From a virus (taxonomy: Duplodnaviria; Heunggongvirae; Uroviricota; Caudoviricetes): 36,679 bases of DNA. The stretch is taken from the IMG/VR virus record IMGVR_UViG_2579778919_000010, one strand, 5' to 3'. The position numbers and the translations under genes are program-made. The notes under the pieces were generated by a model. The model was given only the letters and a program-made list of their open reading frames with translations. It was not told where the DNA came from and did no database searches. Within the stretch, counting starts at the first letter, position 1; each line of letters starts with the position of its first letter. Below are positions 1 to 36,679 of the stretch, piece by piece.

Positions 1-231
1 ATGAGTGAAGGACCAGGCGGGCCACAGGGAGCGACCGCAGGCGGTACGCTGGCAATGCGAATGCTGTCACAGCAGGCGATGGTCGCCAGCCAGATGAAAC
101 GGGCAGCCAACGACAAAGCCATTGCACAGATGTTGGCATCAAAAAAGTCTGGCCCCCCCGCCGCCAGGCTGGGTGCCGCGCGCCAATCAAAACGCGACAC
201 ATTGACAACTAACATTGGATCGCGTTTGTGA
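1..231 (+). pseudogene. 5' part of a gene split by the prophage insertion. Codons 1-57 are native; the last 19 codons (174..231) are read out of the prophage terminus until a stop
   Basis: ORF is open from the ATG at 1 (an upstream frame ends with TGA at 2-4, giving an ATGA overlap) and crosses the inferred junction at 173/174. Joined to 33070..33832 it reads ...SGPPAARLG/DEIQHKSFLGALAGAVLGAIV..., recreating AARxxDxxxH followed by hydrophobic helices. An internal ATG at 130 would put the motif at residues 11-20. Confidence 0.6.
169..173. repeat. Target-site duplication CTGGG, copy next to the prophage right (R) end
   Basis: CTGGG at 169-173 directly precedes TG at 174; the same pentamer is at 33065-33069 directly after CA at 33063-33064. 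Mu-type transposition makes 5-bp duplications. Confidence 0.6.
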
Positions 232-238
232 TCATGAT
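174..238. promoter_or_regulatory. Prophage right-end (attR-like) terminal region, probable transposase-binding sites
   Basis: TGCCGCGCGCCAATCAAAACGCGACACATTGACAAC... begins with TG and shares the AAAACGCGA core with the recalled Mu R1 site (about 11 of 16 matches over one 16-nt stretch); lies between the terminus and the gin stop. Confidence 0.45.
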
Positions 239-793
239 TTATATGTCAGATGCTGGGAATCGTTTGTACAGAGTTGAGATTCCGACGTCATAAATTAGGG
301 CCACCCTCTGACGAGTTTCGCCAGCCGCTAACAATCTTCCAGCCTGCGCCCACTGTTCAGGTGTTAACTTAGGTCTTCGACCTCCCACGCGCCCCTCAGC
401 TCGCGCAGCAGCCAGACCTGCACGTGTACGTTCAACAATCAGTTCACGTTCCATCTCGGCCAATGCCCCCATAACATGAAAAAAGAAGCGCCCCATTGGC
501 GATGAAGTATCTATGCTGTCAGTCAGACTTTTAAAGTTGATACCTCGCTCGCGTAGTTCTTCCACCAGTCCAACCAGATGACGCATGCTGCGTCCGAGGC
601 GATCAAGCTTCCAGACCACGAGGGTGTCACCTTCAGATAGCGTTCTGAGTACCCGTTTTAGTCCGGGTCTGTCTGAGGTTCTGCCGCTTATCTTGTCTTC
701 AAAAATCAGCTCACATCCTGCACATTCCAGCGCATTACGCTGTAATGCCGTGTTCTGGTCATTTGTTGATACACGTACATAGCCAATAAGCAT
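239..793 (-). CDS. gin: Serine DNA invertase, Gin/Pin/Hin/Cin family
   Basis: Translation from MLIGYVRVSTNDQNT... with catalytic-serine motif YVRVS, GDTLVVWKLDRLGRS and C-terminal HTH (ALIYDVGISTLYKR). ORF track begins 12 codons upstream at 829; the conserved N-terminus argues for 793. Confidence 0.93.
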   Translation of the reverse strand: MLIGYVRVSTNDQNTALQRNALECAGCELIFEDKISGRTSDRPGLKRVLRTLSEGDTLVVWKLDRLGRSMRHLVGLVEELRERGINFKSLTDSIDTSSPMGRFFFHVMGALAEMERELIVERTRAGLAAARAEGRVGGRRPKLTPEQWAQAGRLLAAGETRQRVALIYDVGISTLYKRFPASDI

Positions 794-847
794 GGTTAAA
801 CTCACTTTAAATGGCGGGAATAATGCCATTTGAGCGACTAACGATCA

Positions 848-873
848 TTATCGAAAACGTTGGTTTAATTGGT
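848..873. repeat. gix/hix-like invertase crossover site A, next to gin
   Basis: TTATCGAAAACG-TT-GGTTTAATTGGT: left half matches the hix/gix half-site TTATCAAAAACC in 10 of 12 positions; about 55 bp upstream of the gin start; inverted relative to site B. Confidence 0.6.
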
Positions 874-1446
874 AAATCAAATCGTCGTAATCGTAGACCG
901 GCATCTGATGAACTGGACATGCTCATTGAAGGTCTTCAACAACGATCTACACATAAATGCTCAAAAATTCCGTTCGTTGATATCCTCAAATTTTCTGTGT
1001 GGTCATGTATGCGAATCGGTGAAGTATGCCGATTACGATGGGAGGATCTCGATCAGGAACAAAAATCCATACTCGTAAGAGACAGGAAAGATCCACGTAA
1101 AAAGGAAGGCAACCATATGAAAGTAGCCTTGCTTGGGGAAGCCTGGGATATCGTCCAACGACAACCCAAAAAATCAGAATTCATTTTTCCATATAACAGC
1201 ACTTCTGTTACTGCGGGATTCCAGAGGGTAAGAAGCAAATTAGGTATTAAAGATCTGCGATACCATGATTTGCGTAGAGAAGGGGCAAGTCGCTTATTTG
1301 AGGCTGGTTTTAGTATTGAGGAAGTCGCCCAGGTTACAGGGCATCGTTCATTAAACGTGCTATGGCAGGTATATACCGAACTGTATCCGAAATCTTTACA
1401 TAATCGTTTTGAAGAGCTCCAAAGGAGCAGAAATAAGACCTCTTGA
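862..1446 (+). pseudogene. Tyrosine recombinase catalytic-domain remnant (no N-terminal domain, no own start) in the alternate arm of the invertible segment
   Basis: MRIGEVCRLRWEDLD (box I-like), DLRYHDLRREGASRLFEAGFSIEEVAQVTGHRS (box II-like) and a conserved Y in LWQVYTELY. The ORF-track N-terminus 811-861 lies outside the segment over the gin promoter/site A and is discounted. Confidence 0.55.
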
Positions 1447-1507
1447 CACTGTTTATCCATACAGTTAAAAATAATACTGTATACAACCACAGTATAGAGG
1501 GACTTTT
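1443..1507 (+). promoter_or_regulatory. LexA-regulated promoter: -35 TTGACA, -10-like TAAAAA(T), two SOS boxes
   Basis: TTGACA at 1443-1448; CTGT-N8-ACAG at 1449-1464 (cactgtttatccatacagtt) and at 1477-1492 (tactgtatacaaccacagta); AGAGGGA Shine-Dalgarno before the ATG at 1508. Confidence 0.7.
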
Positions 1508-2038
1508 ATGCGTATTGAAATCTGCATAGCCAAAGAAAAAATGACTAAAATGCCAACCGGTGCTGTGGATGCGTTAAAGGAAGAATTAACCCGACGCATC
1601 AGTAAACGTTATGACGATGTAGAGGTGATCGTAAAAGCCACCAGCAACGATGGCCTTTCTGTTACACGCACCGCAGATAAGGATTCTGCAAAAACTTTTG
1701 TTCAGGAGACTCTGAAAGATACCTGGGAATCTGCTGACGAGTGGTTTGTTCAGAGTCGGTTCTTACTGCATCCTTTTCACTGGGGATTGATGGGCCCAAG
1801 CGTGGATCACTCACGCGTCAGTGAGTGGAGCGCGTGTCTCAATAATGACCTGGAGCGTTTTGTCGATATTTTGGAGAGTCAGATTGAGCTCAGTAAGAGC
1901 CGCAATGAGTGGAAGGAGGTTATCTCCGCCGCCACCATAGCCAATGCCTCCACAGCTCTGGATTGGGGGATGGTTCACGAGGTTGCCGCCGCCACTTACC
2001 CGCAGGCACCCGGCACATACTGGTGGATTAACTGTTAA
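1508..2038 (+). CDS. DinI-like protein with an unusual ~95-residue C-terminal extension
   Basis: First ~81 residues [31 protein letters not shown]...[15 protein letters not shown] resemble E. coli DinI; ORF runs on to 176 aa with no stop where DinI normally ends. Confidence 0.7.
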
Positions 2039-2197
2039 CATAATTACCTCTCAAATTTAAATTGGGCAGAGATGCCAGCATCCAGGCTCGCGCCTGGACG
2101 ATTGTCTGATGATGAAAAGTGCAGTTTAATCTGTGGCTGGATTATCTGGATGCACTGGAGCTGGTTGATACCTCCAGTGCGCCAGATATTGAATGGC

Positions 2198-2590
2198 CTA
2201 CTCCTCCGGCAGTTCAGGCCAGATGACATCCGGTGCGGTGCTGGTATCTGTTGCCGTCACAGCGTCGATATAATCCAGCACAGCGTTAAGTCGGGTTGTT
2301 TCTGCCTGCGTCAACTTCCGTCCGGCCTGTAATTTCAGTTGAATCAGACTAATGGAAGCCATAGCTGCATCAATCAGCGACTGGCGCTGTGCTTCTGCCT
2401 CACGAAGTAATTCATCATGTGTTTTTGGCGGCTGCATAGGTGACGAAAGCTTTCCCTTATCATAGAACCAACCAATTCTTACATTATCGGATACAGGTAT
2501 AACTAACGCATTAGTTGGTTGCCAGGCACTCTCACCATCCCATACAGCAATATTGGTAACAACACCATTTTCTATAACGGCATAGTTCAT
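2198..2590 (-). CDS. U: Tail fibre assembly protein (U/Tfa-like)
   Basis: MNYAVIENGVVTNIAVWDG... N-terminus typical of Tfa chaperones; its start overlaps the fibre stop (TGATG); directly downstream of the fibre gene. Confidence 0.8.
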   Translation of the reverse strand: MNYAVIENGVVTNIAVWDGESAWQPTNALVIPVSDNVRIGWFYDKGKLSSPMQPPKTHDELLREAEAQRQSLIDAAMASISLIQLKLQAGRKLTQAETTRLNAVLDYIDAVTATDTSTAPDVIWPELPEE

Positions 2591-3558
2591 CACGCATACT
2601 CCCAAATGATTGCAATACCAGCCATTCCTCTACCTCCGGCACGCTGCTGCGTCGTTCCACCGTAGACACAGGCACCACTGCCTCCACCACCATGGCCATT
2701 AGCATTAATACCTTCGCCTACAATGGCTTGTGACCCAGCCCCCGCACCAAGGATTGAATCGCCGCCAGGCCCCCCCATCGCCAGACTGCCGGAATACCGA
2801 ACGCCTGGTGAGCTATAACCGCTTCCAGACACGATAATATTGGCACCTGTAAATCCCGGCTCAGTATATGCTCCATACGGACCAACAACCCCAGGAACAG
2901 TGCCTTCAGCAAGAACATTCCCACCAAGACCACCTTTGGCAATTATGGTATTGCCGAAAGAGGTTGCTCCCCCGGGAGCACCAACCGACGCACTTGCACC
3001 AGTGCCACCATATCCTATTGTCACAGTAGTTACGGTTGGATTATCCACGCGAGCTTTAACATACTCCCCGGACATCCCCCCGCCACCACAAGCAGCATTA
3101 TTGGGATAACCGACCTGACAACCACCACCGGCCCCACCACCACCAACAATTTCAACAATAATAAATCTTGTGCCTTTTGTCGGAGTGTATGTACCTGAGC
3201 TTTTAAACACCTGACACTGTATAAGCCTCCCGGAGCCATCTCCCAAACCAAGGTTTGTGAGAGCCGCCGCGATTGCTGCCGCACCATCTGCTTTAATGTC
3301 GCCAAATGGATTGGAACGACTCAGAAACAGTTTTTTGAGAGCGACCAGAATCTGCGTGTTGTCCATTTTGTCAGGATCAATCCCAGCGGCCTTGAGAATA
3401 TTGAGCAGCTCGCTTTGAATGACATTAAACCAGTCCGGTCCGGGATACGTCGGAGGAACGCCATTACCTCCTTCAGTAAAGAAAAGCTCGGTCTCACTGG
3501 TGACAGGAGACGGTTGTGGCATAACCGGAACACCGGTTGAATTATCTACGTGAAACAT
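2590..3558 (-). CDS. S: Tail fibre protein (S-like); residues ~1-103 constant, ~104-322 inside the invertible segment
   Basis: 322 aa with glycine-rich C-terminal region (GGGGAGGG, GYGGTGAS); follows the DUF2313-like gene; crossover site B is encoded at codons 100-105 (LTNLGL). Confidence 0.8.
   Translation of the reverse strand: MFHVDNSTGVPVMPQPSPVTSETELFFTEGGNGVPPTYPGPDWFNVIQSELLNILKAAGIDPDKMDNTQILVALKKLFLSRSNPFGDIKADGAAAIAAALTNLGLGDGSGRLIQCQVFKSSGTYTPTKGTRFIIVEIVGGGGAGGGCQVGYPNNAACGGGGMSGEYVKARVDNPTVTTVTIGYGGTGASASVGAPGGATSFGNTIIAKGGLGGNVLAEGTVPGVVGPYGAYTEPGFTGANIIVSGSGYSSPGVRYSGSLAMGGPGGDSILGAGAGSQAIVGEGINANGHGGGGSGACVYGGTTQQRAGGRGMAGIAIIWEYA
3238..3263. repeat. gix/hix-like crossover site B, inside the tail-fibre gene
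   Basis: ATCTCCCAAACC-AA-GGTTTGTGAGAG; core AAACCAAGGTTT matches hixL (AAAACCAAGGTTTTT); its reverse complement aligns with site A (AAAC[G/C]TTGGTTT). Confidence 0.6.
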
Positions 3559-8603: not shown

Positions 8604-10522
8604 CAGCCTTGCTCCACGCTGGACACGCCAGCAGATGCACTAAGTTTGATATCCGGCTGGTTCATGGTGACGCTTTTAACACGGCCACCGCCACCCTCAA
8701 GGATCACGCGGATTTCACCCTGCATTTTCTGTAGGGTTGTGGGTAATGCAGGTGGCTGAACAGGCTTATCAAACGCGTTTTTGTTTTCAATTGCGGCGTT
8801 GGTGCCACGCAGAAAATCAACGATGACACCAAACAAAGAATGATCACTCGTTTCAGGGCGCGGTCTGTCTGCCGGGGGATTTTCAGCCGCAGGAATGAAC
8901 GGCGTCGCCGGGGTCAGTGATGCCCACGGGCGCGGGTCAATAACCGGTTTCTCATTTGCTTTGCGTTTGGCACGATCCTTTGCCCACTGAACCATGCCAG
9001 CTTTGTCATCACTGCTCAGTGATGGTTCTTCATAAAGGTATGGAATAGTTGACGCCAGCATGGTCAGGCCGACCATTTCCTGTGGGCTGCCAGGACGTCT
9101 GGGACTATTAGGTTTACGGGGATTTTTTCCATCAGGTCCATCGGGGATTAAATCACCCGGCCCCCCCATCCCACCTTTGCCCATGTTCACGACATAAACG
9201 GGCATAACACCGGAGCCAAAAACATCGGAGACGCCTTTAGGGATGCCTTTTCCGCCTTTTTCTGGCTGGAGAAACTCCCATGCACCTTTACCAATTTTAA
9301 ATGCTTTACGTGCCGCAATGACTCCAGCGGTCGCAATGGCTATTTTCTTGCCGACTTCCAGCCAGTTCTGAACCGTCTTTTGATCAACTGAATTGATAGC
9401 ATCAGCCAGGTCCTGTACCGGGCCGGCAAGATTGCTGTTAGAAAACTTCTTCCAGGTAACATTCAGGCTGGTCAGTGCCGAAGTAAAATCTTTCGCCGCA
9501 TATTCAGCATCTTTCATGATGCCTGTGCCGTCCCCGACAACTGACTGGTATCGCTTGAGGTTTTCTGCTCCTTTACCAGAGGTGGCACTGCTGATAAGTA
9601 AAATACTGTCCTGGTTAAAACCGGCTTCCAGGAGTCTTTTATTCTGTTTCTCAGAACCTTTACTCCCTGATTTTTTAGCGATTTCCTCCAGGAGTGTTGG
9701 AAGTGATCGCATCTTCCCATCTTTGTCATAAACGTTGACACCATTCTTTCGAAGGGTGCTAACAACCTTTGGCAACTGCAGATCACGAATAAGGTTTTCA
9801 GTCGCCGTGGCTGCTGTATCACGGTTGCCTGTGGCATCAATGGCTGATTCCAGTACAACGCCTACGTCTTTGACTCCCTTAACGCCACTCCCGCCAGCAG
9901 CGGAGTACATAGAGAAGGCTCTGACGCCTTTTTCTGCAATGTCTTTCAGCTCAAATGCGCCTTCTTTTCCCAGAAGGTTTAACGTGTCCATAGCTGCAAG
10001 CGTCTGCTTTTCAGTCTGAAGACCAAATTTGGGGAACTGAGAAAACAGTCCGCCAATCGAATCCCCCTGAGAGCCTGATGCAGCGATAGAGGCGGCTATC
10101 ATGCCCTTATTCTGAATACCGAAATCCAGATCACCGGTCGTTTTGTTGACATTCTCCAGTGCGGCCAACACCTCCGAGTCATCCACCCGGAATTTGATGG
10201 CGGTATCCTGAATACCATCAAAGATATTGCGCATCTCATCACGAGTTTTACCGGCGGCAATACCCAGCCCGGTTAATTGTCGATCTGTTTTAGCAAATTC
10301 TCTCAGCGCTGCGCCGCTGGCAAGGCCGGCAATCATCGTTGTATAGCGATTACTGAGCATGTCCAGACCACGTCCGGCAGATTCAGACGCGGCCTTAACA
10401 ACAGACATTGCTTTCTGGTTACGGCTGGCAAACTCGCTCATGTTAGCGCCGTACTGGCGGGCTTTAGCCGTCAGGTTCCCGGCAAGGTTAATCAGAATTT
10501 CAGTGCTTAGGCGGTTTGTCAT
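8603..10522 (-). CDS. Tail tape measure protein (Mu gp42-like)
   Basis: 639 aa, Gly/Ala-rich with a GKGGMGGPG stretch; lies between the chaperone and N. Confidence 0.85.
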   Translation of the reverse strand: MTNRLSTEILINLAGNLTAKARQYGANMSEFASRNQKAMSVVKAASESAGRGLDMLSNRYTTMIAGLASGAALREFAKTDRQLTGLGIAAGKTRDEMRNIFDGIQDTAIKFRVDDSEVLAALENVNKTTGDLDFGIQNKGMIAASIAASGSQGDSIGGLFSQFPKFGLQTEKQTLAAMDTLNLLGKEGAFELKDIAEKGVRAFSMYSAAGGSGVKGVKDVGVVLESAIDATGNRDTAATATENLIRDLQLPKVVSTLRKNGVNVYDKDGKMRSLPTLLEEIAKKSGSKGSEKQNKRLLEAGFNQDSILLISSATSGKGAENLKRYQSVVGDGTGIMKDAEYAAKDFTSALTSLNVTWKKFSNSNLAGPVQDLADAINSVDQKTVQNWLEVGKKIAIATAGVIAARKAFKIGKGAWEFLQPEKGGKGIPKGVSDVFGSGVMPVYVVNMGKGGMGGPGDLIPDGPDGKNPRKPNSPRRPGSPQEMVGLTMLASTIPYLYEEPSLSSDDKAGMVQWAKDRAKRKANEKPVIDPRPWASLTPATPFIPAAENPPADRPRPETSDHSLFGVIVDFLRGTNAAIENKNAFDKPVQPPALPTTLQKMQGEIRVILEGGGGRVKSVTMNQPDIKLSASAGVSSVEQG

Positions 10523-16196: not shown

Positions 16197-17153
16197 TTAT
16201 TTCTCCTGCTTACGAACGGAAAGGAATTCTTCTTCGCTGATGCCCATATGGCGGCACATCGCGAGGTCTTCGTCAGAAAGCGAGGCATGACCTTCGGTGC
16301 CTTCTTTTTTGGTCGTCGTGGTCTTGCTGACAATGACCGGTGCCGCTTTCACGAATTCAGCAAACCGCTTTCGGCCCTCTTCAGAGCGGCAGGTGGCGAG
16401 ATACATTTCTCGGTTGGCCGGTGCGACTTTCCCCGACTCAATGGCGCTGTCCACCAGTGCTTCTGATTCTTTGATGGCAATCTCATTGAGTTTGTTTTCA
16501 GCGCTTTCCGCACGGTTAAGTGCTAACTGGTGGGTCTCTACCGGAATGAACTTCGTCAGGTCAGGATTCTCAGCGCGGTTAAGCGCCACCTGCTCGGCGG
16601 TCTTAATCTGCTGAATGGCTTTTACTGCGTCGTCTGCTGTGGCAGTGGCCGCGAGGCCAAGCACTGTCACAATCTGGACAGGTACGGTCATCGTGTTTTC
16701 CTCAGAGTTGAGTGCGGGTAAATCAAGGTTGGGTTTGTTGGTCAGCGCGGCGCTGGACAGGCGGGTGACCTGACCGTCCGCAGTGAACCGAAAGGCCGGA
16801 CTGTAATAGAGGTACTTCTTGCCGCGCAGCTGCGCCATGCCGTCATCAGTCCATTCAACGTGCGCCTCCACCACGCCATCACTGACGCGATAGCCGTCAA
16901 TCCAGCCATAAGCCGGGGCTTCATCGCCTTTCGGGCCTTTCAGTTCGGTAGAGTGCTCGATATCAAACGGGAGCTTTGGATAAGCCATCGAGGCACGAAT
17001 GATGGCTTCCGGATTGTTGTTCACCCACGAACGGCCATCACGCCCTGTAAAGGTTCCCGCCGGTATCATCGGCAGCCATTCCGGCAATGCATCATCGGTA
17101 AGGTCAGGAAGCTGAAAGCAGAGCGCCAGCAGTTCCGTATTGTTCGGGTTCAT
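16197..17153 (-). CDS. I: Head protease / scaffold protein I (with probable internal Z-like C-terminal part)
   Basis: 318 aa Mu I-like; acidic coiled-coil C-terminal half typical of scaffold. Confidence 0.8.
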   Translation of the reverse strand: MNPNNTELLALCFQLPDLTDDALPEWLPMIPAGTFTGRDGRSWVNNNPEAIIRASMAYPKLPFDIEHSTELKGPKGDEAPAYGWIDGYRVSDGVVEAHVEWTDDGMAQLRGKKYLYYSPAFRFTADGQVTRLSSAALTNKPNLDLPALNSEENTMTVPVQIVTVLGLAATATADDAVKAIQQIKTAEQVALNRAENPDLTKFIPVETHQLALNRAESAENKLNEIAIKESEALVDSAIESGKVAPANREMYLATCRSEEGRKRFAEFVKAAPVIVSKTTTTKKEGTEGHASLSDEDLAMCRHMGISEEEFLSVRKQEK

Positions 17154-17356
17154 GGTGTTGTCCGGTCACGTTGTTTACTTCCGGACAGTGTGGGGGGGAA
17201 CGGGGATGCAGGTGGATTAACCGGCTTCACTGTAAACGCGGCATGAAACCGCGTTTAAAACACGTTTAAAAACGCTGTGGCGCGTTTAACGATTTTTTCA
17301 CGTGCCGTCATGACGTAATAATCGTTAATGCCGCCACGCGCGTTGTGGGATGGTTT
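17154..17356. promoter_or_regulatory. Near-central intergenic region with CGCGTTTAA-type repeats: candidate late promoter and/or strong gyrase site analogue
   Basis: Three direct copies (accgcgtttaaaac, acacgtttaaaaac, ggcgcgtttaacg) plus an inverted copy (taaacgcgg); a 7-bp inverted repeat TGTCCGG/CCGGACA just upstream of the I start; ~600 bp from the prophage midpoint. Confidence 0.4.
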
Positions 17357-22807: not shown

Positions 22808-23113
22808 TTAATTTTTTTCCTTCAGTTCGTTTTCCAGCAACAGATCGCTGATACGTGTGGCCTGCCGGAGCATTCCGGAGAACTCCCGTATTTCGCCGCG
22901 CAGGTTGCTCATATCCAGTTGCAACTGGTGGAGTTCCTGCCGTGACGGCATCCCGTCGATGGCCTTTTCAAGTGCACTCATCCGGCTGTTAACTTTCTCC
23001 ATCTCTTCCCGGCGGGCATAGGTTTTCACCAGCAGCAGGTGGATAATATTGATACCGGACATCAGTCCGGCCCAGATGACAGCCCAGTTACTTCTTACGG
23101 TTTCCCATTCCAT
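22808..23113 (-). CDS. Membrane-anchored coiled-coil protein (spanin or Mu gp25-like candidate)
   Basis: N-terminal hydrophobic helix (WAVIWAGLMSGINIIHLLLV) followed by a charged coiled coil. Confidence 0.45.
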   Translation of the reverse strand: MEWETVRSNWAVIWAGLMSGINIIHLLLVKTYARREEMEKVNSRMSALEKAIDGMPSRQELHQLQLDMSNLRGEIREFSGMLRQATRISDLLLENELKEKN

Positions 23114-23320
23114 TTATGCCGTCTCCCTGAGTGTCTGGCAGTCAATGCAGGTCACGGCATCCGGCATGGCCGCCAGTCGTTTCGGGTCAATTTCGTCACC
23201 ACAGTCGTTGCAGTGGTCTGGCGTGTCAGGAGATTCTTTAACCCTGTTTAACTGAGCATTTAATGCCCGTTCACGGTCTGCCATCTCAAGGCCGCTGGCC
23301 TTGTCCAGTTCATCCGTCAT
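23114..23320 (-). CDS. TraR/DksA-family C4 zinc-finger protein
   Basis: CNDCGDEI...CIDCQ, four Cys in a CxxC-N17-CxxC arrangement. Confidence 0.7.
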   Translation of the reverse strand: MTDELDKASGLEMADRERALNAQLNRVKESPDTPDHCNDCGDEIDPKRLAAMPDAVTCIDCQTLRETA

Positions 23321-23925
23321 CTACCCGCCGCCATCGTTTTGTGTTTGCTGGATTTGCTGTACCGGGCGAACCCGTCAAGGGTACGAAAACCAAGATACCC
23401 AAGCGCCGGTGTCGCCAGCATGAGTGCGATATCCCAGTCCGGTGATGGCATGGAGAAGGCATGACCAAAAGCACCGGATACCGCGCCAGCCTGCTGACCC
23501 ACAGACATCAGCATCACATACGCAATGCTGCTGTATAGCGACAGCCGGGCCATCAGCGGTCTGGTCTGACGGACATATTCATCCGTGGCGTTGTCCCCGT
23601 TACGGATGGTTTCCTGCTGTTCATGGTGGGCAGCCTGACGGTCAGCCAGTACGGCTTTGTCCCGCTCAAGCTGGAATTGTTCAATCTGGACCTTCAGGGA
23701 CTGGAGCTGGACGAACTGTTCTGGCGGCAGCGCCGCCAGTTTTTGCTCAAGCACCCGCTGCTGGTCCTGCGGGTTGATGACGCTGTTGACGTTCTCAACG
23801 ATCCCCGCCACAGAATCTGCCGTTCTGGCGGTGTCGCCACCGAACCAGCCGCCCACGGTACGCAGTAACGACGGTCCTGCCTTCATCAGAACGCTGGCAA
23901 CGGTAGAGATGGTTACTGGATCCAT
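23317..23925 (-). CDS. Lysis-region membrane protein (holin-like candidate)
   Basis: 202 aa with C-terminal hydrophobic segments. Confidence 0.4.
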   Translation of the reverse strand: MDPVTISTVASVLMKAGPSLLRTVGGWFGGDTARTADSVAGIVENVNSVINPQDQQRVLEQKLAALPPEQFVQLQSLKVQIEQFQLERDKAVLADRQAAHHEQQETIRNGDNATDEYVRQTRPLMARLSLYSSIAYVMLMSVGQQAGAVSGAFGHAFSMPSPDWDIALMLATPALGYLGFRTLDGFARYSKSSKHKTMAAGR

Positions 23926-24320
23926 GCAAGAAGCCCCTTACGTTCAACCCACATACAGAAAAGAACGCCGATTGCAGCACCCACTGGTGTAAGAAGAATC
24001 AGGTATAACGGGGTGGCATATAGCTGGCTCAGAATGAGAAGAAAACCGCCTACAACCCAGATGACCCACGCCCAGAAACGGGCATGCCGGCTGATATGCA
24101 TTTCAGGTTTAAGAAGCCTGTACGGAAGATTGCCAAGAAAGATACTGAATCCGATCAGAACCACGCCGGAGAGTGCCAGCCACCAGACCATAAATGCCTG
24201 GCGGCCTGAGAAACTACAGATGAACAGCGACAGGCCGACGAGAATGACAATGCTCCATCCGGAGCGCAAAACCTGTACCAGTGCCAGCCTTAACCAGTCG
24301 CAGCTAAACGATTTAAACAT
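23913..24320 (-). CDS. Multi-pass membrane protein (lysis region)
   Basis: Probable start MFKSFSCDW; 3-4 predicted hydrophobic helices; ORF track extends it to 24452. Confidence 0.45.
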   Translation of the reverse strand: MFKSFSCDWLRLALVQVLRSGWSIVILVGLSLFICSFSGRQAFMVWWLALSGVVLIGFSIFLGNLPYRLLKPEMHISRHARFWAWVIWVVGGFLLILSQLYATPLYLILLTPVGAAIGVLFCMWVERKGLLAWIQ

Positions 24321-24531
24321 TGTGTTTTTCCTTGTATCGCTGGCATTGCCAGACGATGTCTCTGATATCGACGGATGACCAGCCGCGCATGTAGTAACTG
24401 GCGTGTGTACCGTCATGACCTGCATAACTTGTCGGAACGGGGACGGGGCCACCTGCTATTCGGTGAAGAACTTCCTGCCTCAGCCGGTCACGTCGTCCCT
24501 GTTTCAGCGAAGCGTCCCATCCCTTGCCCAT
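24313..24531 (-). CDS. Hypothetical small protein downstream of the endolysin
   Basis: 72-aa ORF coupled to the endolysin stop. Confidence 0.35.
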   Translation of the reverse strand: MGKGWDASLKQGRRDRLRQEVLHRIAGGPVPVPTSYAGHDGTHASYYMRGWSSVDIRDIVWQCQRYKEKHNV

Positions 24532-24532
24532 A

Positions 24533-25123
24533 TCAGCTCCGGGCTACCGAATAGCGGACACCGGAAATCTCACGACAGGCGTCAGCGAGGTTGTCAAGGC
24601 GGTTAAACCAGCCGTTGAGGAACTTGCCCTGCGAAGAGTTTGCTTTGATGATGTCGGCGTAATAGCGGGAACGTTGCAGAAACAAACGGTTCAGCAGCCA
24701 GTCAGGGTCAGCACGCTCAACGGCTGCACGGGTGTTTTTACCGGCGATACCGTCAACGCTTTTGCCAGTGAAACCCACAGCTTCCTGAAGCAACTGGACA
24801 GCCTTTTTGACGCCATGCTGGACGGCAGAATCAAAGACAAACAGGGCGATATCATCCGGCCATAACTGGCAATACGCCGGATACCAGTAGTCACGGAAGT
24901 AAATCTGTCCGGCCTGTTCAACCGTTAAATCACGAATACGAGTATCAGGCTTGCCATCGCCATTAACGTCGGTCATGCCATCGGCAACACCGTCGCGTTT
25001 ATCTGATATACCGAAGTTAGTTTCACCGCCACGGTCAGTGGGGTCATTGACATATCCGCGTTCTGCGCTGAGCACGAAAGCAAGAGCATTGCGAAATGCG
25101 GGAGAATCGGGGGTGTTGTTCAT
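24533..25123 (-). CDS. lys: Endolysin, GH108 lysozyme domain with C-terminal peptidoglycan-binding domain
   Basis: ERGYVNDPTDRGGETNFGI signature of GH108 and a C-terminal GWFNRL-type PG-binding region. Confidence 0.8.
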   Translation of the reverse strand: MNNTPDSPAFRNALAFVLSAERGYVNDPTDRGGETNFGISDKRDGVADGMTDVNGDGKPDTRIRDLTVEQAGQIYFRDYWYPAYCQLWPDDIALFVFDSAVQHGVKKAVQLLQEAVGFTGKSVDGIAGKNTRAAVERADPDWLLNRLFLQRSRYYADIIKANSSQGKFLNGWFNRLDNLADACREISGVRYSVARS

Positions 25124-25176
25124 AAAACGGCACCTTTGGAAGTGGGTTAGATTTCCCTTCCATCATGTGCCGGACG

Positions 25177-25201
25177 AAAAAAAAGCCGGATTAACCGGCT
25201 T
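25177..25201 (-). terminator. Intrinsic terminator downstream of the AT-rich moron
   Basis: On the minus strand: stem AAGCCGG / loop TTAAT / CCGGCTT followed by an 8-U run (plus strand: aaaaaaaa-gccggattaaccggctt). Confidence 0.65.
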
Positions 25202-25219
25202 CATTGTATTGGCTATAAC

Positions 25220-25543
25220 TTAATAGAATAAATAATCTTTGTAGCGATAGAGCAACCATCCTGATACCAACAAAAGTAGAATAATAAAACTTACGCTTTT
25301 ATCAGTCTTTACTGGATATTCTTCCGCAGCGATCAATAAAGATTTCCTGTTGATCAGATACCAAATAAAAGGAAGTATAAATATACTCAGCGCAGCCCAA
25401 ACCACAGGGTGTATGCCTCTGCGACATCCTTTTCGCACACCGTCTCTAACAACATAACTTCCTATGTTGTTAGAAGTAGCATCAAAGAAAACCCAAAAAA
25501 CACATATAATACAAACTATGTTAATAACAATCACACCAACCAT
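25220..25543 (-). CDS. Small hydrophobic membrane protein encoded in a markedly AT-rich block (moron / cargo)
   Basis: 107 aa with ~3 hydrophobic helices; composition clearly lower in GC than flanking phage genes; own terminator; occupies the mor-lys interval. Confidence 0.6.
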   Translation of the reverse strand: MVGVIVINIVCIICVFWVFFDATSNNIGSYVVRDGVRKGCRRGIHPVVWAALSIFILPFIWYLINRKSLLIAAEEYPVKTDKSVSFIILLLLVSGWLLYRYKDYLFY

Positions 25544-25547
25544 ATTA

Positions 25548-25955
25548 TCACTCCATATTAAATGAGAGCTGCCTCTTACCTTGCTCTAACTTTCGCATTC
25601 TCCGGATTGCTTTATACACCGTTTTATAGGTAACACGGTAACGCTCAACCAACTCTGTGATGTTTCTGCCATTGAAATCACGCCAGATTTTCATATCACG
25701 AATCAATGACTCAAGAGTCTGGCCGCGTGGAAAATAAATCTGCATTCCACCAATCTGACAGCTAATCGCATAGACCAGCTCCAGAGAGATTCGTGGGTCA
25801 ACACCATGCTTTGTCAGTTCGCCACGCAACAGCGTATTCAGTTCTGTCAGCAGTGCAGGGAAACGCACAGTTTCCGCCGAACTGTCATCGTCCAGGTGCT
25901 CCAGAATGCTGTCATCCTGGATATCACCAAACAGGTCATTCTGCTTTTCGCTCAT
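25548..25955 (-). CDS. mor: Middle operon regulator Mor
   Basis: DLFGDIQDDSILEHL...RFPALLTELNTLLRGEL...IRDMKIWRDFNGRNITELVERYRVTYKTVYKAIRRMR closely matches Mu Mor as recalled. Confidence 0.9.
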   Translation of the reverse strand: MSEKQNDLFGDIQDDSILEHLDDDSSAETVRFPALLTELNTLLRGELTKHGVDPRISLELVYAISCQIGGMQIYFPRGQTLESLIRDMKIWRDFNGRNITELVERYRVTYKTVYKAIRRMRKLEQGKRQLSFNME

Positions 25956-33064: not shown

Positions 33065-33069
33065 CTGGG
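33065..33069. repeat. Target-site duplication CTGGG, copy next to the prophage left (L) end
   Basis: Identical to 169-173; follows CA at 33063-33064. Confidence 0.6.
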
Positions 33070-33832
33070 CGATGAAATTCAGCACAAGAGTTTTTTGGGG
33101 GCGCTGGCAGGGGCCGTACTGGGGGCGATAGTGACCATCGCAGAAGGTTGCCTGATTATGGCCGCCTGTGCCACCGGCCCTTATGCGCTGGTTCTGGTGC
33201 CTGCGCTGATGTATGCCAGCTATAAGGCGAGTGATTATGTGGAGGAGAAACAGAACCAGCTTGAATCATGGATAAACAGCTTTTGTGACACGGACGGCGC
33301 CATCAATACCGGTTCTGAAAACGTAAAAATTAACGGCGAGCTGGCCGCACGTGCAGCGGTCACCCTTCCCCCTCCTCCCCCACCTGGAGCAATACCTGAA
33401 GTCCCACAGGGGGAACCCTCATGGGGTGATATTGCCACTGACCTGCTTGAATCGGCAGCGGAAAAAGCAGTACCACTGGCGAAGGCCTGGGGGAACGCTG
33501 TTATCACCCTGACGGACAGCAATGCCGGTTTTATGGATCGCGTCAGCGCCGGCGCATCGCTTCTGTTTCCCGCCGGTCCGGTATTAATGGAGTTTGCCAC
33601 CATGGTGGGCGGGCGTGGCGAAATCAAAAAAGAGGTGGATTTCCCGGAAGCCGGTGAGGACACGGCGCTCTGCGACAAGGAGAACAAACCACCGAGGATA
33701 GGCGCGATCACTTTCATCTACTCCGTTACAAAGCGAGGCTGGGTATTTCCCGGCCTTTCTGTTATCAGAAATCCACTGAAAGCACAGCGGCTGGCTGAGG
33801 CGATAAATAATAAACGGGGGCTGTATGACTGA
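33070..33832 (+). pseudogene. 3' part of the split gene: hydrophobic helices, a PAAR-like motif and a C-terminal domain of unknown function
   Basis: Frame open from the junction (DEIQHKSFLGALAGAVLGAIVTIAEGCLIMAACATGPYALVLVPALMY...NVKINGELAARAAV...PPPPPPG...); the ORF track shows only the TTG-initiated part from 33095; stop overlaps the dam-like start by 8 nt. Confidence 0.6.
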
Positions 33833-34382
33833 TTTCACCGGAAGCAATACTCCTGCCGAACATCGCGACAGCTGGCGCACACCACCAGAGATTTTTGCTG
33901 CGCTTAATGCAGAGTTCGTTTTTCAACTTGATGCTGCCGCCAGCGAAAAAAACCGACTATGTCGGCTTTTTATCTCACAGGAGCAGAACACATTAACCAC
34001 TTCATGGCCTGAAGCAATGGGATATGCCTCTGGTTATGTCTGGTTGAATCCACCATACAGCAATATTTCCCCTTTTGTGAAAAAGGCAGCCACTGAAAAC
34101 AAATTCAGTAGTGTGGGATGTGTAATGTTATTGCCTGCTGACACATCTGTCGGATGGTTTCATGAAGCGATACAAACCGCCAGTGAGGTCAGATTCATCA
34201 CGGCAGGACGACTGGCATTTATTAACCCACTCACTGAGAAACCCGTCAGTGGAAATAATAAAGGCTCGATGCTCATTATCTGGCACCCATACCCCCGTAC
34301 ACACTGCCACTTTACGACCGTTGATCGTGGAGAGTTGATGGCGTTCGGCTCAAGGATTCTTGCCCGTCGGGAGGCTGCATGA
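33825..34382 (+). CDS. Phage-type DNA N6-adenine methyltransferase (Dam family)
   Basis: WRTPPEIF...LDAAAS...VWLNPPYS (NPPY motif IV)...LLPADTSVGWF; 185 aa. Confidence 0.8.
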   Translation: MTDFTGSNTPAEHRDSWRTPPEIFAALNAEFVFQLDAAASEKNRLCRLFISQEQNTLTTSWPEAMGYASGYVWLNPPYSNISPFVKKAATENKFSSVGCVMLLPADTSVGWFHEAIQTASEVRFITAGRLAFINPLTEKPVSGNNKGSMLIIWHPYPRTHCHFTTVDRGELMAFGSRILARREAA

Positions 34383-34462
34383 CAACCACGGAATGCATTT
34401 TTCTGGCAGCGGGCTTCATATTCTGTGTGCTTATGCTTGCCGACATGGGACTTGTTCAATGA
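34379..34462 (+). CDS. Putative 27-aa hydrophobic peptide, translationally coupled on both sides
   Basis: ATGACAACCACGGAATGCATTTTTCTGGCAGCGGGCTTCATATTCTGTGTGCTTATGCTTGCCGACATGGGACTTGTTCAATGA encodes MTTTECIFLAAGFIFCVLMLADMGLVQ; ATGA overlaps with the dam stop and with the next start. Confidence 0.4.
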   Translation: MTTTECIFLAAGFIFCVLMLADMGLVQ

Positions 34463-34674
34463 CACCTCAGCAGGAAAACGCCCTTCGCAGCATTGCCCGT
34501 CAGGCTAATTCTGAAATCAAAAAAGCCAGACAGCAGTTTCCGGATAAAAACGTCGATGACATTTGCCGTAGCGTACTTAAGAAGCACCGCGAAACGGTAA
34601 CGCTGATGGGATTCACACCGACTCATTTAAGCCTGGCGATCGGCATGTTAAACGGCGTCTTTAAGGAACGGTGA
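34459..34674 (+). CDS. Hypothetical small protein
   Basis: Start MTPQQENALRSIARQ... coupled to the upstream peptide; ORF track extends it 5' to 34360. Confidence 0.5.
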   Translation: MTPQQENALRSIARQANSEIKKARQQFPDKNVDDICRSVLKKHRETVTLMGFTPTHLSLAIGMLNGVFKER

Positions 34675-34772
34675 ACATGAAAAGCAAAATCATCAGGGAG
34701 CTACAGGCTCCTTTTTTATTGTTCGCATTCATCCTCAAGCGTATTAACCAACAATTCAGGGATTAATGGAAG

Positions 34773-34991
34773 ATGGCAGACATCATTGATTCAGCATCAG
34801 AAATCGAAGAATTACAGCGCAATACAGCAATAAAAATGCGTCGTCAGAACTACCAGACTGTATCCGCAACTCATTGTTGTGAGTGTGGCGATCCGATAGA
34901 TGAGCGAAGACGCCTGGCTGTTCAGGGTTGTCGGACTTGTGCAAGTTGCCAGGAGGAGATCGAACTTAAGAACAAACAATGGGGACTGTGA
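34773..34991 (+). CDS. TraR/DksA-family C4 zinc-finger protein
   Basis: CCECGDPIDERRR...CRTCASCQ, a four-cysteine zinc-finger arrangement. Confidence 0.75.
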   Translation: MADIIDSASEIEELQRNTAIKMRRQNYQTVSATHCCECGDPIDERRRLAVQGCRTCASCQEEIELKNKQWGL

Positions 34992-35038
34992 TGGCCTCAA
35001 AGCAGCAAATTTCAACATCGTCCAACTGAGGTGTAAAA

Positions 35039-35317
35039 ATGTTCAGAATCATTTTTCCTAACACCTGGTACGTCGACCACCACGGCACTCCCTGCAAAAT
35101 CCTGCGTTCTACCCACAACAAAGTTCACTACATCCGAAAAGGCAGAACATGTATCGCCAGCATGTTCCGCTTTAATCATGACTTTGAACCTGTGAATAAA
35201 GCTGATGCAGATCGGATAGCAGAAGAGATCGAAACGGCAGAACACATTAAGAAGTTACGTGACATGCGTTCAAAAAGCAGAGGTAACCATGGAATCATAC
35301 AGCCTCACACTCGATGA
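35039..35317 (+). CDS. Hypothetical protein
   Basis: 92-aa ORF upstream of xis. Confidence 0.45.
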   Translation: MFRIIFPNTWYVDHHGTPCKILRSTHNKVHYIRKGRTCIASMFRFNHDFEPVNKADADRIAEEIETAEHIKKLRDMRSKSRGNHGIIQPHTR

Positions 35318-35660
35318 GGCCTGTCAGTTTCTTAAGATATCCAGACCAACCGCCACCAACTGGATACGAACAGGCCGCCTACAGGCAACACGTAAAGATC
35401 CAACCAAGCCAAAATCTCCTTACCTCACAACACGGCAAGCCTGCATTGCGGCGCTTCAGTCTCCGCTGCATACTGTCCAGGTGAGCGCGGGTGATGGCAT
35501 AACAGAGGAAAGAAAATGTCACTCTTCCGCAGAAATGAAATATGGTATGCCTCGTATTCGCTCCCGGGCGGGAAACGAATTAAGGAATCTCTTGGCACAA
35601 AGGACAAGCGGCAAGCTCAGGAGTTGCACGACAAGCGAAAAGCAGAACTCTGGCGAGTAG
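35289..35660 (+). CDS. xis: Excisionase-like DNA-binding protein
   Basis: [37 protein letters not shown]... HTH; directly upstream of and overlapping int. The 3' end is uncertain because the frame runs 145 nt into int. Confidence 0.6.
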
Positions 35661-36679
35661 AAAAGCTAGGGGATTTACCTGATGTCACTTTTGAAGAGGC
35701 CTGCCTAAGATGGCTTGAGGAAAAAGCTGATAAAAAATCTCTCGATTCAGATAAAAGCCGGATTGAGTTCTGGCTTGAACATTTTGAGGGTATAAGGCTT
35801 AAAGATATCTCGGAGGCAAAGATTTACTCTGCTGTAAGCAGAATGCATAACAGAAAGACGAAAGAAATATGGAAACAGAAAGTTCAGGCCGCCATCAGGA
35901 AAGGTAAAGAACTGCCTGTTTATGAACCAAAGCCAGTATCAACTCAGACAAAGGCAAAGCATCTTGCCATGATAAAGGCCATTCTCCGTGCTGCAGAACG
36001 CGACTGGAAGTGGCTGGAAAAAGCGCCTGTCATCAAGATACCAGCGGTCAGAAACAAGCGAGTCAGATGGCTGGAAAAGGAGGAAGCAAAACGCCTTATT
36101 GATGAGTGCCCCGAACCACTGAAATCTGTCGTCAAGTTTGCGCTGGCAACTGGTCTGAGAAAGTCGAACATCATAAATCTGGAATGGCAACAAATCGACA
36201 TGCAGCGACGAGTTGCCTGGGTGAATCCAGAAGAGAGCAAATCAAACCGCGCCATTGGTGTGGCGCTGAACGATACCGCCTGTAAAGTGTTGCGTGATCA
36301 AATAGGCAAGCATCACAAATGGGTGTTTGTACATACCAAGGCGGCTAAGCGAGCAGATGGAACATCAACGCCTGCGGTCAGGAAGATGCGCATCGACAGC
36401 AAGACATCATGGCTATCAGCTTGTCGTCGTGCAGGAATTGAAGATTTCCGTTTCCATGACCTCAGACACACCTGGGCAAGCTGGCTGATTCAGTCAGGCG
36501 TCCCATTATCAGTGCTTCAGGAAATGGGCGGATGGGAGTCCATAGAAATGGTTCGTAGGTATGCTCACCTTGCGCCTAATCATTTGACAGAGCATGCGAG
36601 GAAAATAGACGACATTTTTGGTGATAATGTCCCAAATATGTCCCACTCTGGAATTATGGAGGATATAAAGAAGGCGTAA
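35516..36679 (+). CDS. int: Tyrosine integrase (phage lambda-family; resembles the DLP12 IntD lineage as recalled)
   Basis: 387 aa; catalytic motifs ...[41 protein letters not shown]...; window ends at its stop codon. Confidence 0.9.

Follow-up and report, generated by a model that had tools for sequence, protein, structure and literature searches.

What an AT-rich gene for a small membrane protein does directly behind the activator gene mor of a Mu-like prophage, whether the terminator-like hairpin that follows belongs to that gene or to the phage, and how the late genes are transcribed when no gene for the Mu late activator C is seen, are questions raised by IMG/VR virus record IMGVR_UViG_2579778919_000010, a stretch of 36,679 nucleotides (nt) that was analysed at its full length and is called the window below. 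An initial annotation, made from the letters of the window alone, placed a gene for a hydrophobic, three-helix protein of 107 amino acids (aa) between mor and the endolysin gene, described it as a moron with its own terminator where Mu carries C, considered it acquired cargo and a candidate for exclusion or abortive infection, and concluded that late transcription must either depend on Mor alone or be defective. The gene, its two flanking genes, its AT-richness relative to the surroundings, the hairpin with a U-run behind it and the lack of a Mor/C paralogue elsewhere were all found again here. The terminator was not found to be the gene's own.

In the following, the interval between mor and the hairpin is called the slot, and the gene within it the slot gene. 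We are confident of the anatomy of this interval, which consists of a gene, a slot and a conserved element. As a whole, we lean towards a reading in which an AT-rich gene sits in a swappable slot, a conserved Mor-activated element lies behind it, and the late genes are served by Mor only.

A Pm-like element behind mor

The hairpin behind the slot gene consists of an 8-bp stem with five G-C pairs, a 5-nt loop and a run of eight T residues (Table 1). In a 51-nt context it reaches -16.4 kcal/mol (z = -3.67), a value equalled by 0 of 200 shuffled sequences, and as a G+C-rich stem-loop followed by a U-run it has the form of an intrinsic terminator, at which termination in vivo is predicted. The same hairpin (AGCCGGTTAATCCGGCT) and T-run stand 7 nt past the mor stop codon in Mu (AGCCGGTTAATCCGGCTTTTTTT), where mor ends at map position 9170, gp18 starts at 9248, and C and lys follow farther downstream. 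We take the Mu hairpin to be the early terminator t9.2, a name that its coordinates of 9178-9201 fit and for which literature confirmation was not found.

At the Mu promoter Pm, a Mor dimer binds a 16-bp imperfect dyad that is centred at -43.5 and has 5-bp arms on either side of a G/C-rich hexanucleotide spacer (PMC4390567). Primer JM1 and Table 3 of that study place GTAAAC at -57..-52 of Pm (PMC4390567), which makes AGTAA-AGCCGG-TTAAT the Mu Mor site and TATCCT, at -13..-8, the -10 hexamer; an independent primer, 'Mu Pm nt9163 F', has the sequence ttctgtaaacagtaaagccggttaatccggc (PMC9239132). The Mu hairpin lies inside Pm, and the Mor-binding site overlaps its 5' arm and loop. The window has a Pm-type dyad at the equivalent of -51..-36, identical to the Mu site in spacer and right arm and matching it at 3/5 positions of the left arm, and Mor binding is predicted from this sequence match. 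No -35 hexamer is present, the -35 region reading CCGGC and then the T-run, and transcription is predicted to start near 25154, 31 nt before the ATG of the lysin gene. The window also encodes a homologue of gp18, the first gene of the Mu middle operon, which lies here downstream of the lysin promoter.

Twenty-three loci encoding a Mor relative, from 10 genera (represented by E. coli, Citrobacter, Enterobacter, Klebsiella, Raoultella, Kluyvera, Pluralibacter, Serratia, Brenneria and Trabulsiella), were compared together with Mu itself. The sequence AGCCGG[T/A]TAATCCGGCT was found downstream of mor in 23/23, the spacing from the box to the -10 position is kept throughout, and a cAnaAT-like hexamer occupies the -10 position in all aligned loci. 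An aligned block, cAATGAAGCCGGT[T/A]AATCCGGCTTTTTTT..g.C.g..acA..aTG, which includes cAATGAAGCCGGT[T/A]AAT, is likewise kept in the 23 loci whichever gene lies upstream. A plain terminator would not need the non-stem bases AATGA, and their conservation across slot families suggests that the element is more than that. Since Mu has the hairpin without any insert, and relatives with different slot genes have it in unchanged form, the terminator belongs to the phage: it is a backbone early-terminator/Pm element and not part of the slot gene's equipment. The initial annotation's placement of the gene 'where Mu carries C' was right in that the Mu mor-lys interval holds gp18, gp19, gp20 and C, but C comes after the element in Mu, whereas the insert comes before it here. 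It is tempting to read the site as a clean terminator that closes off an AT-rich gene, but it is the phage's own regulatory hub.

We propose that the hairpin and U-run would end the early operon, and that the 5' half of the hairpin would serve as the Mor site of a Pm-type promoter reading into the endolysin gene, the gp18 homologue and the genes beyond.

The slot gene and its alternatives

The slot gene is closely joined to mor. Its ATG lies 4 nt past the mor stop codon, the GGAG of its Shine-Dalgarno sequence is inside mor with a spacing of 7 nt to the ATG, and a consensus scan of the minus strand between 25543 and 25955 returned no sigma-70-like promoter, although a weak or atypical promoter could escape such a scan. 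Taken together, these features make it the last cistron of the early operon, coupled to mor and without a detectable promoter of its own, rather than an autonomous moron. Its composition is deviant: sliding-window GC content is 0.33-0.40 over 25100-25700 against 0.50-0.56 on either side, and GC content at third codon positions (GC3) is 0.315, compared with 0.51-0.66 in neighbouring genes (mor 0.515, lysin 0.553, gemA 0.574, and 0.574 in a nearby gene for a 135-aa membrane protein). Because GC3 is low even against another membrane-protein gene, the AT-richness is not a by-product of hydrophobic amino acids. Comparison of the slot gene with its homologues gave proportions of nonsynonymous (pN) and synonymous (pS) differences of 0.18-0.45 and 0.68-0.80, respectively; these measures were used because the ratio of substitution rates, dN/dS, was mostly not computable with synonymous sites saturated. 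With pN far below pS, the gene is under purifying selection.

AlphaFold2 modelled the 107-aa protein from 52 homologues with a predicted local distance difference test score (pLDDT) of 91.3 and a predicted template modelling score (pTM) of 0.79. The model has three membrane-length helices (residues 2-24, 46-64 with a kink at P58, and 82-100). Loop 1 forms a small beta-hairpin, and loop 2 contains an amphipathic helix (66-75). The protein matches phrog_36430, which is annotated as of unknown function (1e-71). No model in Pfam, NCBIfam or PADLOC fits it, Pfam giving chance-level matches only up to E <= 10 and PADLOC none at E up to 1, and a Foldseek comparison of the model with PDB and BFVD returned nothing at E < 1. 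The sole match of a PDB sequence-profile search, FlhB (E = 0.016), was treated as an artefact of membrane composition, and homology to Mu gp19 was rejected (hhalign probability 0.5%; BLASTP E = 0.016 over a hydrophobic stretch).

Across the compared loci, the hairpin follows the mor stop codon by 7 nt in Mu, by 336-351 nt in the 14 loci whose slot encodes a homologue of the 107-aa protein (family A, 103-111 aa), and by 511-546 nt in nine loci with slot genes for proteins of 162-172 aa (family B; one of them, at locus L023, resembles the third family of the census below). The slot open reading frames (ORFs) begin between -4 and +9 nt relative to the mor stop. The sibling prophages ECONIH5 and VREC0864 have flanks 95-96% identical to those of the window and the same hairpin, and an unrelated 169-aa gene in the slot. 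Family A occupies the same slot in Citrobacter, Enterobacter, Klebsiella, Raoultella, Kluyvera, Serratia and Brenneria prophages and holds that position through 40-60% protein divergence. In one Citrobacter-type relative (L006), backbone genes share 82-93% DNA identity with the window and the slot gene 72%; the slot protein is 68% identical, compared with 88-96% for its neighbours, and the stretch of approximately 100 nt between the Mor box and the lysin ATG shows a single difference.

A census of IMG/VR viral contigs with the exact 24-mer AAGCCGGTWAATCCGGCTTTTTTT gave at least 120 matching stretches. Among the matches listed, 90 sites with an upstream Mor could be evaluated, at which the slot is empty, as in Mu, in 32 and holds family A in 20, family B in 28 and a third family in 10. 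Family B proteins have a signal anchor or signal peptide and conserved cysteines, those of the third family (165-178 aa) carry a Sec signal peptide and are conserved in their C-terminal region (...T[ST]C[ST]A..K), and several non-A slot proteins combine Sec-type signal peptides with paired cysteines (non-A families at L002 2335-2844 (-), L003, L016-L018 and L021-L024, and in IMG/VR at, for example, L071 and L135). The one family B protein that was scanned (L002, 169 aa) received no Pfam, PHROG, PADLOC or NCBIfam assignment. A tblastn search of 50,697 phage records found family A in one, Klebsiella phage Kp4866-3, and family B in none, so that there is no isolated, characterised phage to act as a guide. 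By this pattern of occupancy, the slot is a recurrent exchange point and the slot gene dispensable, and all of the alternative occupants are predicted to be directed to the envelope.

These comparisons modify the description of the gene as acquired cargo. Its outlying composition and variable position agree with that description, but it has no promoter of its own, abuts mor and sits in a slot shared across genera. The comparison with related prophages tells in part against the description, in that the gene proved to be conserved in related phages; its odd composition persists.

The close homologues of the slot protein form nine clusters among 5.8 billion proteins, all enterobacterial and 107-112 aa long, and those that were looked up all lie in the same slot. 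A profile search of 1.84 billion cluster representatives returned 63 relatives at E <= 1e-3, and a wider profile matched 97 proteins. Common to them is a module of approximately 95 aa (W-x3-D-A-x4-I-G ... W ... P-x2-Y-L-x2-R-x2-L-x3-A-x3-P, with W17, D21, G28, Y62, R66, A73 and P77 invariant), which the slot protein matches over the full length of the profile. The module can stand by itself, be repeated in tandem or form the N-terminal portion of a longer protein; a zinc ribbon precedes it in one homologue, and variable C-terminal domains follow it in others. In the proteins scanned, no Pfam or NCBIfam model covers the module, the longer remote homologues giving matches at chance level or to unrelated parts. 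Counts of lysine plus arginine across the family are 2.8 in loop 1 and 5.2 in loop 2; this charge bias, which is ambiguous for the 107-aa protein itself, and the fusion architectures favour an N-in/C-out topology of the three-transmembrane (3-TM) module.

Three distant subfamilies of the module adjoin mor in divergent Mu-like prophages, one in the layout Mor-[99 aa]-GH108 and two in the layout HI_1489_N-[about 101 aa]-Mor-lysin; at L030 and L033 the homologue precedes mor. The composition of these subfamilies is nearer to that of their neighbours, and in L033 it is ordinary. Judged by these arrangements, the 3-TM family is a long-standing neighbour of mor in divergent Mu-like prophages, and the slot provides a first genomic foothold for a widespread three-helix module that is absent from curated databases. 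Outside phages (P0019, P0020, P0142, P0034 and P0043), the module is found in tandem duplicates of 187-189 aa and of 416 aa, behind the zinc ribbon, or ahead of the variable C-terminal domains, with one weak match to DUF4352. The tandem copy of Oleiagrimonas soli (P0142, at L039) lies in an integrase island, between an Eco29kI-type restriction-modification system and a helix-turn-helix gene.

Mor and late transcription without C

A six-frame search of the whole prophage found no second Mor/C gene. It covered 845 stop-to-stop segments of at least 25 aa, using phmmer and hmmsearch with Mu Mor, Mu C, the Mor of the window and a small profile, and mor was the sole match (E = 4e-51 with Mu Mor and 3e-19 with Mu C), the next best having E >= 0.2. 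The recognition-helix segment of the encoded Mor, TVYKAIRRMR, is identical to that of Mu Mor.

A second predicted Mor box precedes the gene for a Mu-like I protease/scaffold protein (Table 1). The exact 16-mer TGAAGCCGGTTAATCC occurs in the window only at 25188-25203 and 17214-17229 (-), while the chance expectation is 0.34 matches for a 16-mer at up to 3 mismatches. The second site has neither the 3' stem arm nor the U-run and is a box minus the terminator. Candidates for further Mor boxes, obtained with looser patterns, were at chance level and were rejected (12942 is inside a small ORF, and 10579 is on the other strand). Directly upstream of the second box is a strong 9-bp hairpin (AAACGCGGU-UUCAU-GCCGCGUUU; approximately 17233-17256 (-)), with a weaker hairpin farther up. 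These hairpins may end the lysis-operon transcript, mirroring the terminator-then-promoter logic of the first site.

The arrangement is not peculiar to the window. In the 33 kb of Klebsiella phage Kp4866-3 there is one Mor/C gene, and a site homologous to the second box lies at a matching distance. Among the census matches listed, C is absent within 3.5 kb downstream in 39/39 evaluable contigs with an occupied slot and also in nine contigs whose slot is empty and in which GH108 comes first downstream, whereas Mu-type contigs, in which gp18 comes first, have C. At least 16 copies of the 24-mer stand directly before the I protease gene, 13 of them without an upstream Mor and three with an incomplete upstream flank. 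The homologue list given for SuMu, an isolated Mu-like phage, contains Mor and no C (PMC3447690). The lack of a second Mor/C gene, the exact second box and the commonness of C-less relatives make Mor-only late control likely. We think it probable, from these sequence comparisons, that the phage has no C and that Mor is its sole middle and late activator, serving the lysis operon and, from the second exact box, which would drive the head protease operon, the head genes. Such a phage would be a compact model for late control in C-less Mu-like phages, with identical Mor boxes before the lysis and head operons.

Other layouts were also seen. Eight contigs among the census matches listed have an empty slot, GH108 as the first gene, and C. 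In the isolated Muvirus Yersinia phage vB_YpM_5 (L028, MT374853.1), mor and the same hairpin are followed by a GH108-like gene, a gene for 76 aa where gp18 would be, C and the gene for a Mu-type lysozyme (rrrD). This phage combines a GH108 homologue with the Mu lysozyme, and Mor with C, and is intermediate in layout. The Mor of the window also retains an N-terminal DLF motif (...NDLFGD..., 25930-25945 (-)). In Mu Mor and MuC, DLF has been proposed as a beta-clamp-binding motif (2026 PNAS, PMC12867686), and should Mor act as the only late activator in this phage, it might depend on the clamp.

The other outcome named in the initial annotation, a transcriptionally defective remnant in which C has been lost, the late genes have no activator and the insert marks decay, would agree with the absence of C and with an IS66 element in the tail-fibre assembly gene of one copy of the prophage (ECONIH4). 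It is nevertheless very unlikely. The element is a Mu-like transposable E. coli prophage of approximately 32.9 kb, with its repressor end at approximately 33064 and its opposite end about 100 bp past a Gin-like recombinase gene (239..829), at roughly 130-240; as both ends are inside the window, the window holds the whole prophage. The major prophage genes are all intact ORFs. The 2.2 kb around the slot gene are 100% identical in three complete E. coli chromosomes (ECONIH4, CAVP776 and EC09), and two further E. coli chromosomes are 95-96% identical over the same 2.2 kb, with a gap, for a total of 5/5,426 genomes. Prophage copies that are 100% identical over the parts tested break four different loci in four genomes: a lambdoid tail assembly gene in ECONIH4, a DUF932 gene in CAVP776, a site near yiiE/fabY in EC09 and, in the window, a Rhs/DUF1317/Dam/integrase region (flank 33065-36679) that resembles another prophage. 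Identical copies at four insertion sites in different strains imply recent Mu-style transposition. Moreover, the C-less layout with Mor boxes recurs in dozens of the listed viral contigs and in Kp4866-3, and the promoter region is more conserved than the coding flanks. The choice between Mor-only and defective late transcription is thereby moved towards the former.

Table 1. Features around the slot and at the second predicted Mor box; positions are those of the window
Feature	Position	Strand	Basis or remark
mor, only Mor/C-family activator gene, 135 aa	25548..25955	-	PF08765, E = 1.8e-30
GGAG Shine-Dalgarno sequence of the slot gene	25551..25554	-	Within the last mor codons; read from sequence ...atGGAGtgataatATG
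Slot gene (family A), three-helix inner-membrane protein, 107 aa	25220..25543	-	ATG start
Predicted Mor-binding site AATGA-AGCCGG-TTAAT	25190..25205	-	Equivalent to -51..-36 of Mu Pm
Hairpin + U8, resembling an intrinsic terminator, at the end of the early operon; overlaps the Mor box	25177..25202	-	Fold and conservation
Predicted -10 hexamer CATGAT at -13..-8	25162..25167	-	Placed by the same Mor-box spacing as Mu TATCCT
GH108 + PG_binding_3 endolysin, first gene past the Pm-like promoter	24533..25123	-	PF05838 8.9e-22, PF09374 7.9e-16
Mu gp18 homologue	24313..24531	-	MGKGWDAS... vs Mu gp18 MGKGWNAS...; relatives annotated PF26867 Phage_Mu_gp18
Second predicted Mor box AGTGA-AGCCGG-TTAAT	17216..17231	-	~65 nt upstream of the head protease gene
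Mu-like I protease/scaffold gene behind the second Mor box	16197..17153	-	PF10123 Mu-like_Pro, E = 3.3e-47

On the minus strand, RefSeq gives the order Gam, hypothetical, gp16/GemA, Mor, hypothetical, GH108 lysin and further genes including DUF2730, and Pfam backs GemA, Mor, GH108 + PG_binding_3, TraR and DUF2730 in the window. The right end of the prophage (window 1-2600) is mosaic. It carries the Gin-like recombinase gene, with no com/mom past it. In the window, an integrase-family ORF (811..1446) and a DinI-like ORF (1508..2038) lie between the recombinase gene and the tail-fibre assembly gene; the ECONIH4 copy is without these two ORFs and has the IS66 element in the tail-fibre assembly gene instead.

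Roles of the slot protein and comparison with known systems

We propose that the slot gene would ride on early transcription, placed so that the Mor-dependent promoter is left undisturbed, and that its product would be an accessory envelope factor, made early after induction or infection, that blocks DNA entry by a superinfecting phage or modifies the envelope. A function of the superinfection-exclusion type is a tentative assignment. It is suggested because the gene, apparently dispensable, alternates with secreted periplasmic proteins or with nothing and can outpace the divergence of its neighbours, and because its timing would be that of the early operon, as for T4 Imm and Sp. The tandem homologue P0142, in an island with an integrase and a restriction-modification system, was also counted in favour of an accessory envelope role. 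About equally likely is an early accessory membrane protein with a task other than exclusion, such as host takeover (through division, transport or membrane potential), the countering of a membrane-bound defence, or service as a membrane anchor or partner. That the module is also found within longer proteins, duplicated in tandem and in chromosomal settings that are not mobile points to a membrane module of general use. It adjoins mor on either side in divergent Mu-like prophages, like a long-term resident, and the slot gene is under purifying selection. A slot that is empty in 32/90 evaluable relatives listed, or filled with unrelated secreted proteins, fits a conflict or accessory function better, and no co-varying partner gene was found in the loci examined. 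More speculatively still, the mor-Pm junction may be a dedicated plug-in socket, whose occupants would be expressed automatically with the early operon and insulated by the backbone terminator/operator, the three kinds of occupant being early exclusion or anti-defence envelope factors. If so, the 3-TM module would represent a novel type of protein for phage conflict at the membrane, one that is also widespread outside phages.

Two more conventional roles fare worse. If the slot gene were a classical moron or served lysogenic conversion, as an autonomous unit whose own promoter and terminator let the repressed prophage express it to the host's advantage, then the low GC3, the presence, absence and replacement of the gene between close relatives, and the membrane-protein product would be explained. 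This reading is improbable, however, given a coding strand without a sigma-70-like promoter, an ATG so close behind the mor stop, a terminator that is a backbone Pm element present in insert-free Mu, and homologues that keep the same position despite their divergence. A holin or lysis-timing protein for the cytoplasmic GH108 endolysin has even less to recommend it, although a protein of about 100 aa with three transmembrane helices, encoded just ahead of an endolysin that lacks both a signal and a SAR domain and needs some route through the inner membrane, invites the suggestion. Mu itself is without a holin and uses a DUF2730 releasin (PMC9239132). The terminator and the Mor-dependent promoter both come after the slot gene, which places it in the early class; siblings with the same lysin carry the secreted 169-aa protein instead, at least nine C-less contigs with GH108 first have an empty slot, and the homologue is upstream of mor in L030 and L033. 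Better holin candidates are encoded at 23913..24320 and 23317..23925, the latter with a weak PHROG holin match (E = 0.084). The lysis cassette around them (23317-24452 (-)) comprises the GH108 lysin, a 135-aa multi-helix membrane protein and a 202-aa protein with C-terminal hydrophobic segments; a DUF2730 releasin homologue is found at 22808..23113, and no spanin pair was recognised in the cassette.

Several observations weigh against the reading proposed here, in its regulatory part as well as in its functional part. Termination at the hairpin, Mor binding and the start sites are extrapolated from Mu. The upstream half-site is unlike that of Mu (AATGA/AGTGA compared with AGTAA), and with two Mor boxes found, the tail genes need read-through from the second. 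As for the slot protein, PADLOC, Pfam, NCBIfam, PDB sequences, and Foldseek against PDB and BFVD revealed no homology to exclusion or defence proteins. Prophage exclusion genes are usually active in the repressed lysogen, where no expression is expected of a gene in the early operon. In several relatives the slot protein is 64-66% identical, compared with 63-73% for mor and the lysin, which is no arms-race signature, and some distant family members are in ordinary chromosomal neighbourhoods, so that a generic membrane role is possible.

Compared with known systems, the regulatory element would, by its sequence, be a close variant of Mu Pm that is used twice and without C. It shares with Mu Pm the core AGCCGGTTAATCCGGC and T-run, the recognition helix of the activator, the spacing from the box to the -10 position and a gp18 homologue downstream. 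In Mu, the element lies 7 nt past mor and drives gp18-gp19-gp20-C; here a gene is interposed, the element would drive the endolysin gene directly, and C is absent. The second Mor box sits where Mu has the C-dependent promoter PI. Single-activator Mu-like phages are already known, for example Haemophilus parasuis SuMu, whose homologue list has one Mor-family gene, then a lysin, and no separate C, and accessory genes like the slot gene are commonplace in phages. A limited literature search found no earlier report of Mor boxes at both operons or of the mor-Pm slot. What appears to be undescribed in that literature is the precise socket between mor and Pm, the set of three occupants that replace one another in it, and the 3-TM module, which lacks annotation; these are leads rather than surprises.

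Morons in the sense of Hendrix and colleagues are said to bring their own promoter and terminator and to be expressed from the prophage. Like lambdoid morons, the slot gene is a deviant, AT-rich extra gene, often for an envelope protein in the lambdoid case, that is present in some relatives and absent from others; unlike them, it has no detectable promoter, is joined to mor and uses the terminator of the backbone. Mu gp19 and gp20 are also small, non-essential membrane proteins encoded between mor and lys, but they are unrelated to the slot protein, and Pm separates their genes from the slot. T4 Imm and Sp and HK97 gp15, all small and either located in the inner membrane or periplasmic with a membrane anchor, block the entry of superinfecting DNA and are dispensable, those of T4 being made early. 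No sequence or fold similarity of these proteins to the slot protein was detected. New exclusion or anti-defence functions may sensibly be sought in a frequently exchanged slot that holds envelope proteins of three unannotated families, and its alternation between a polytopic membrane protein and a secreted periplasmic protein mirrors, in logic only, the T4 pair of Imm and Sp.

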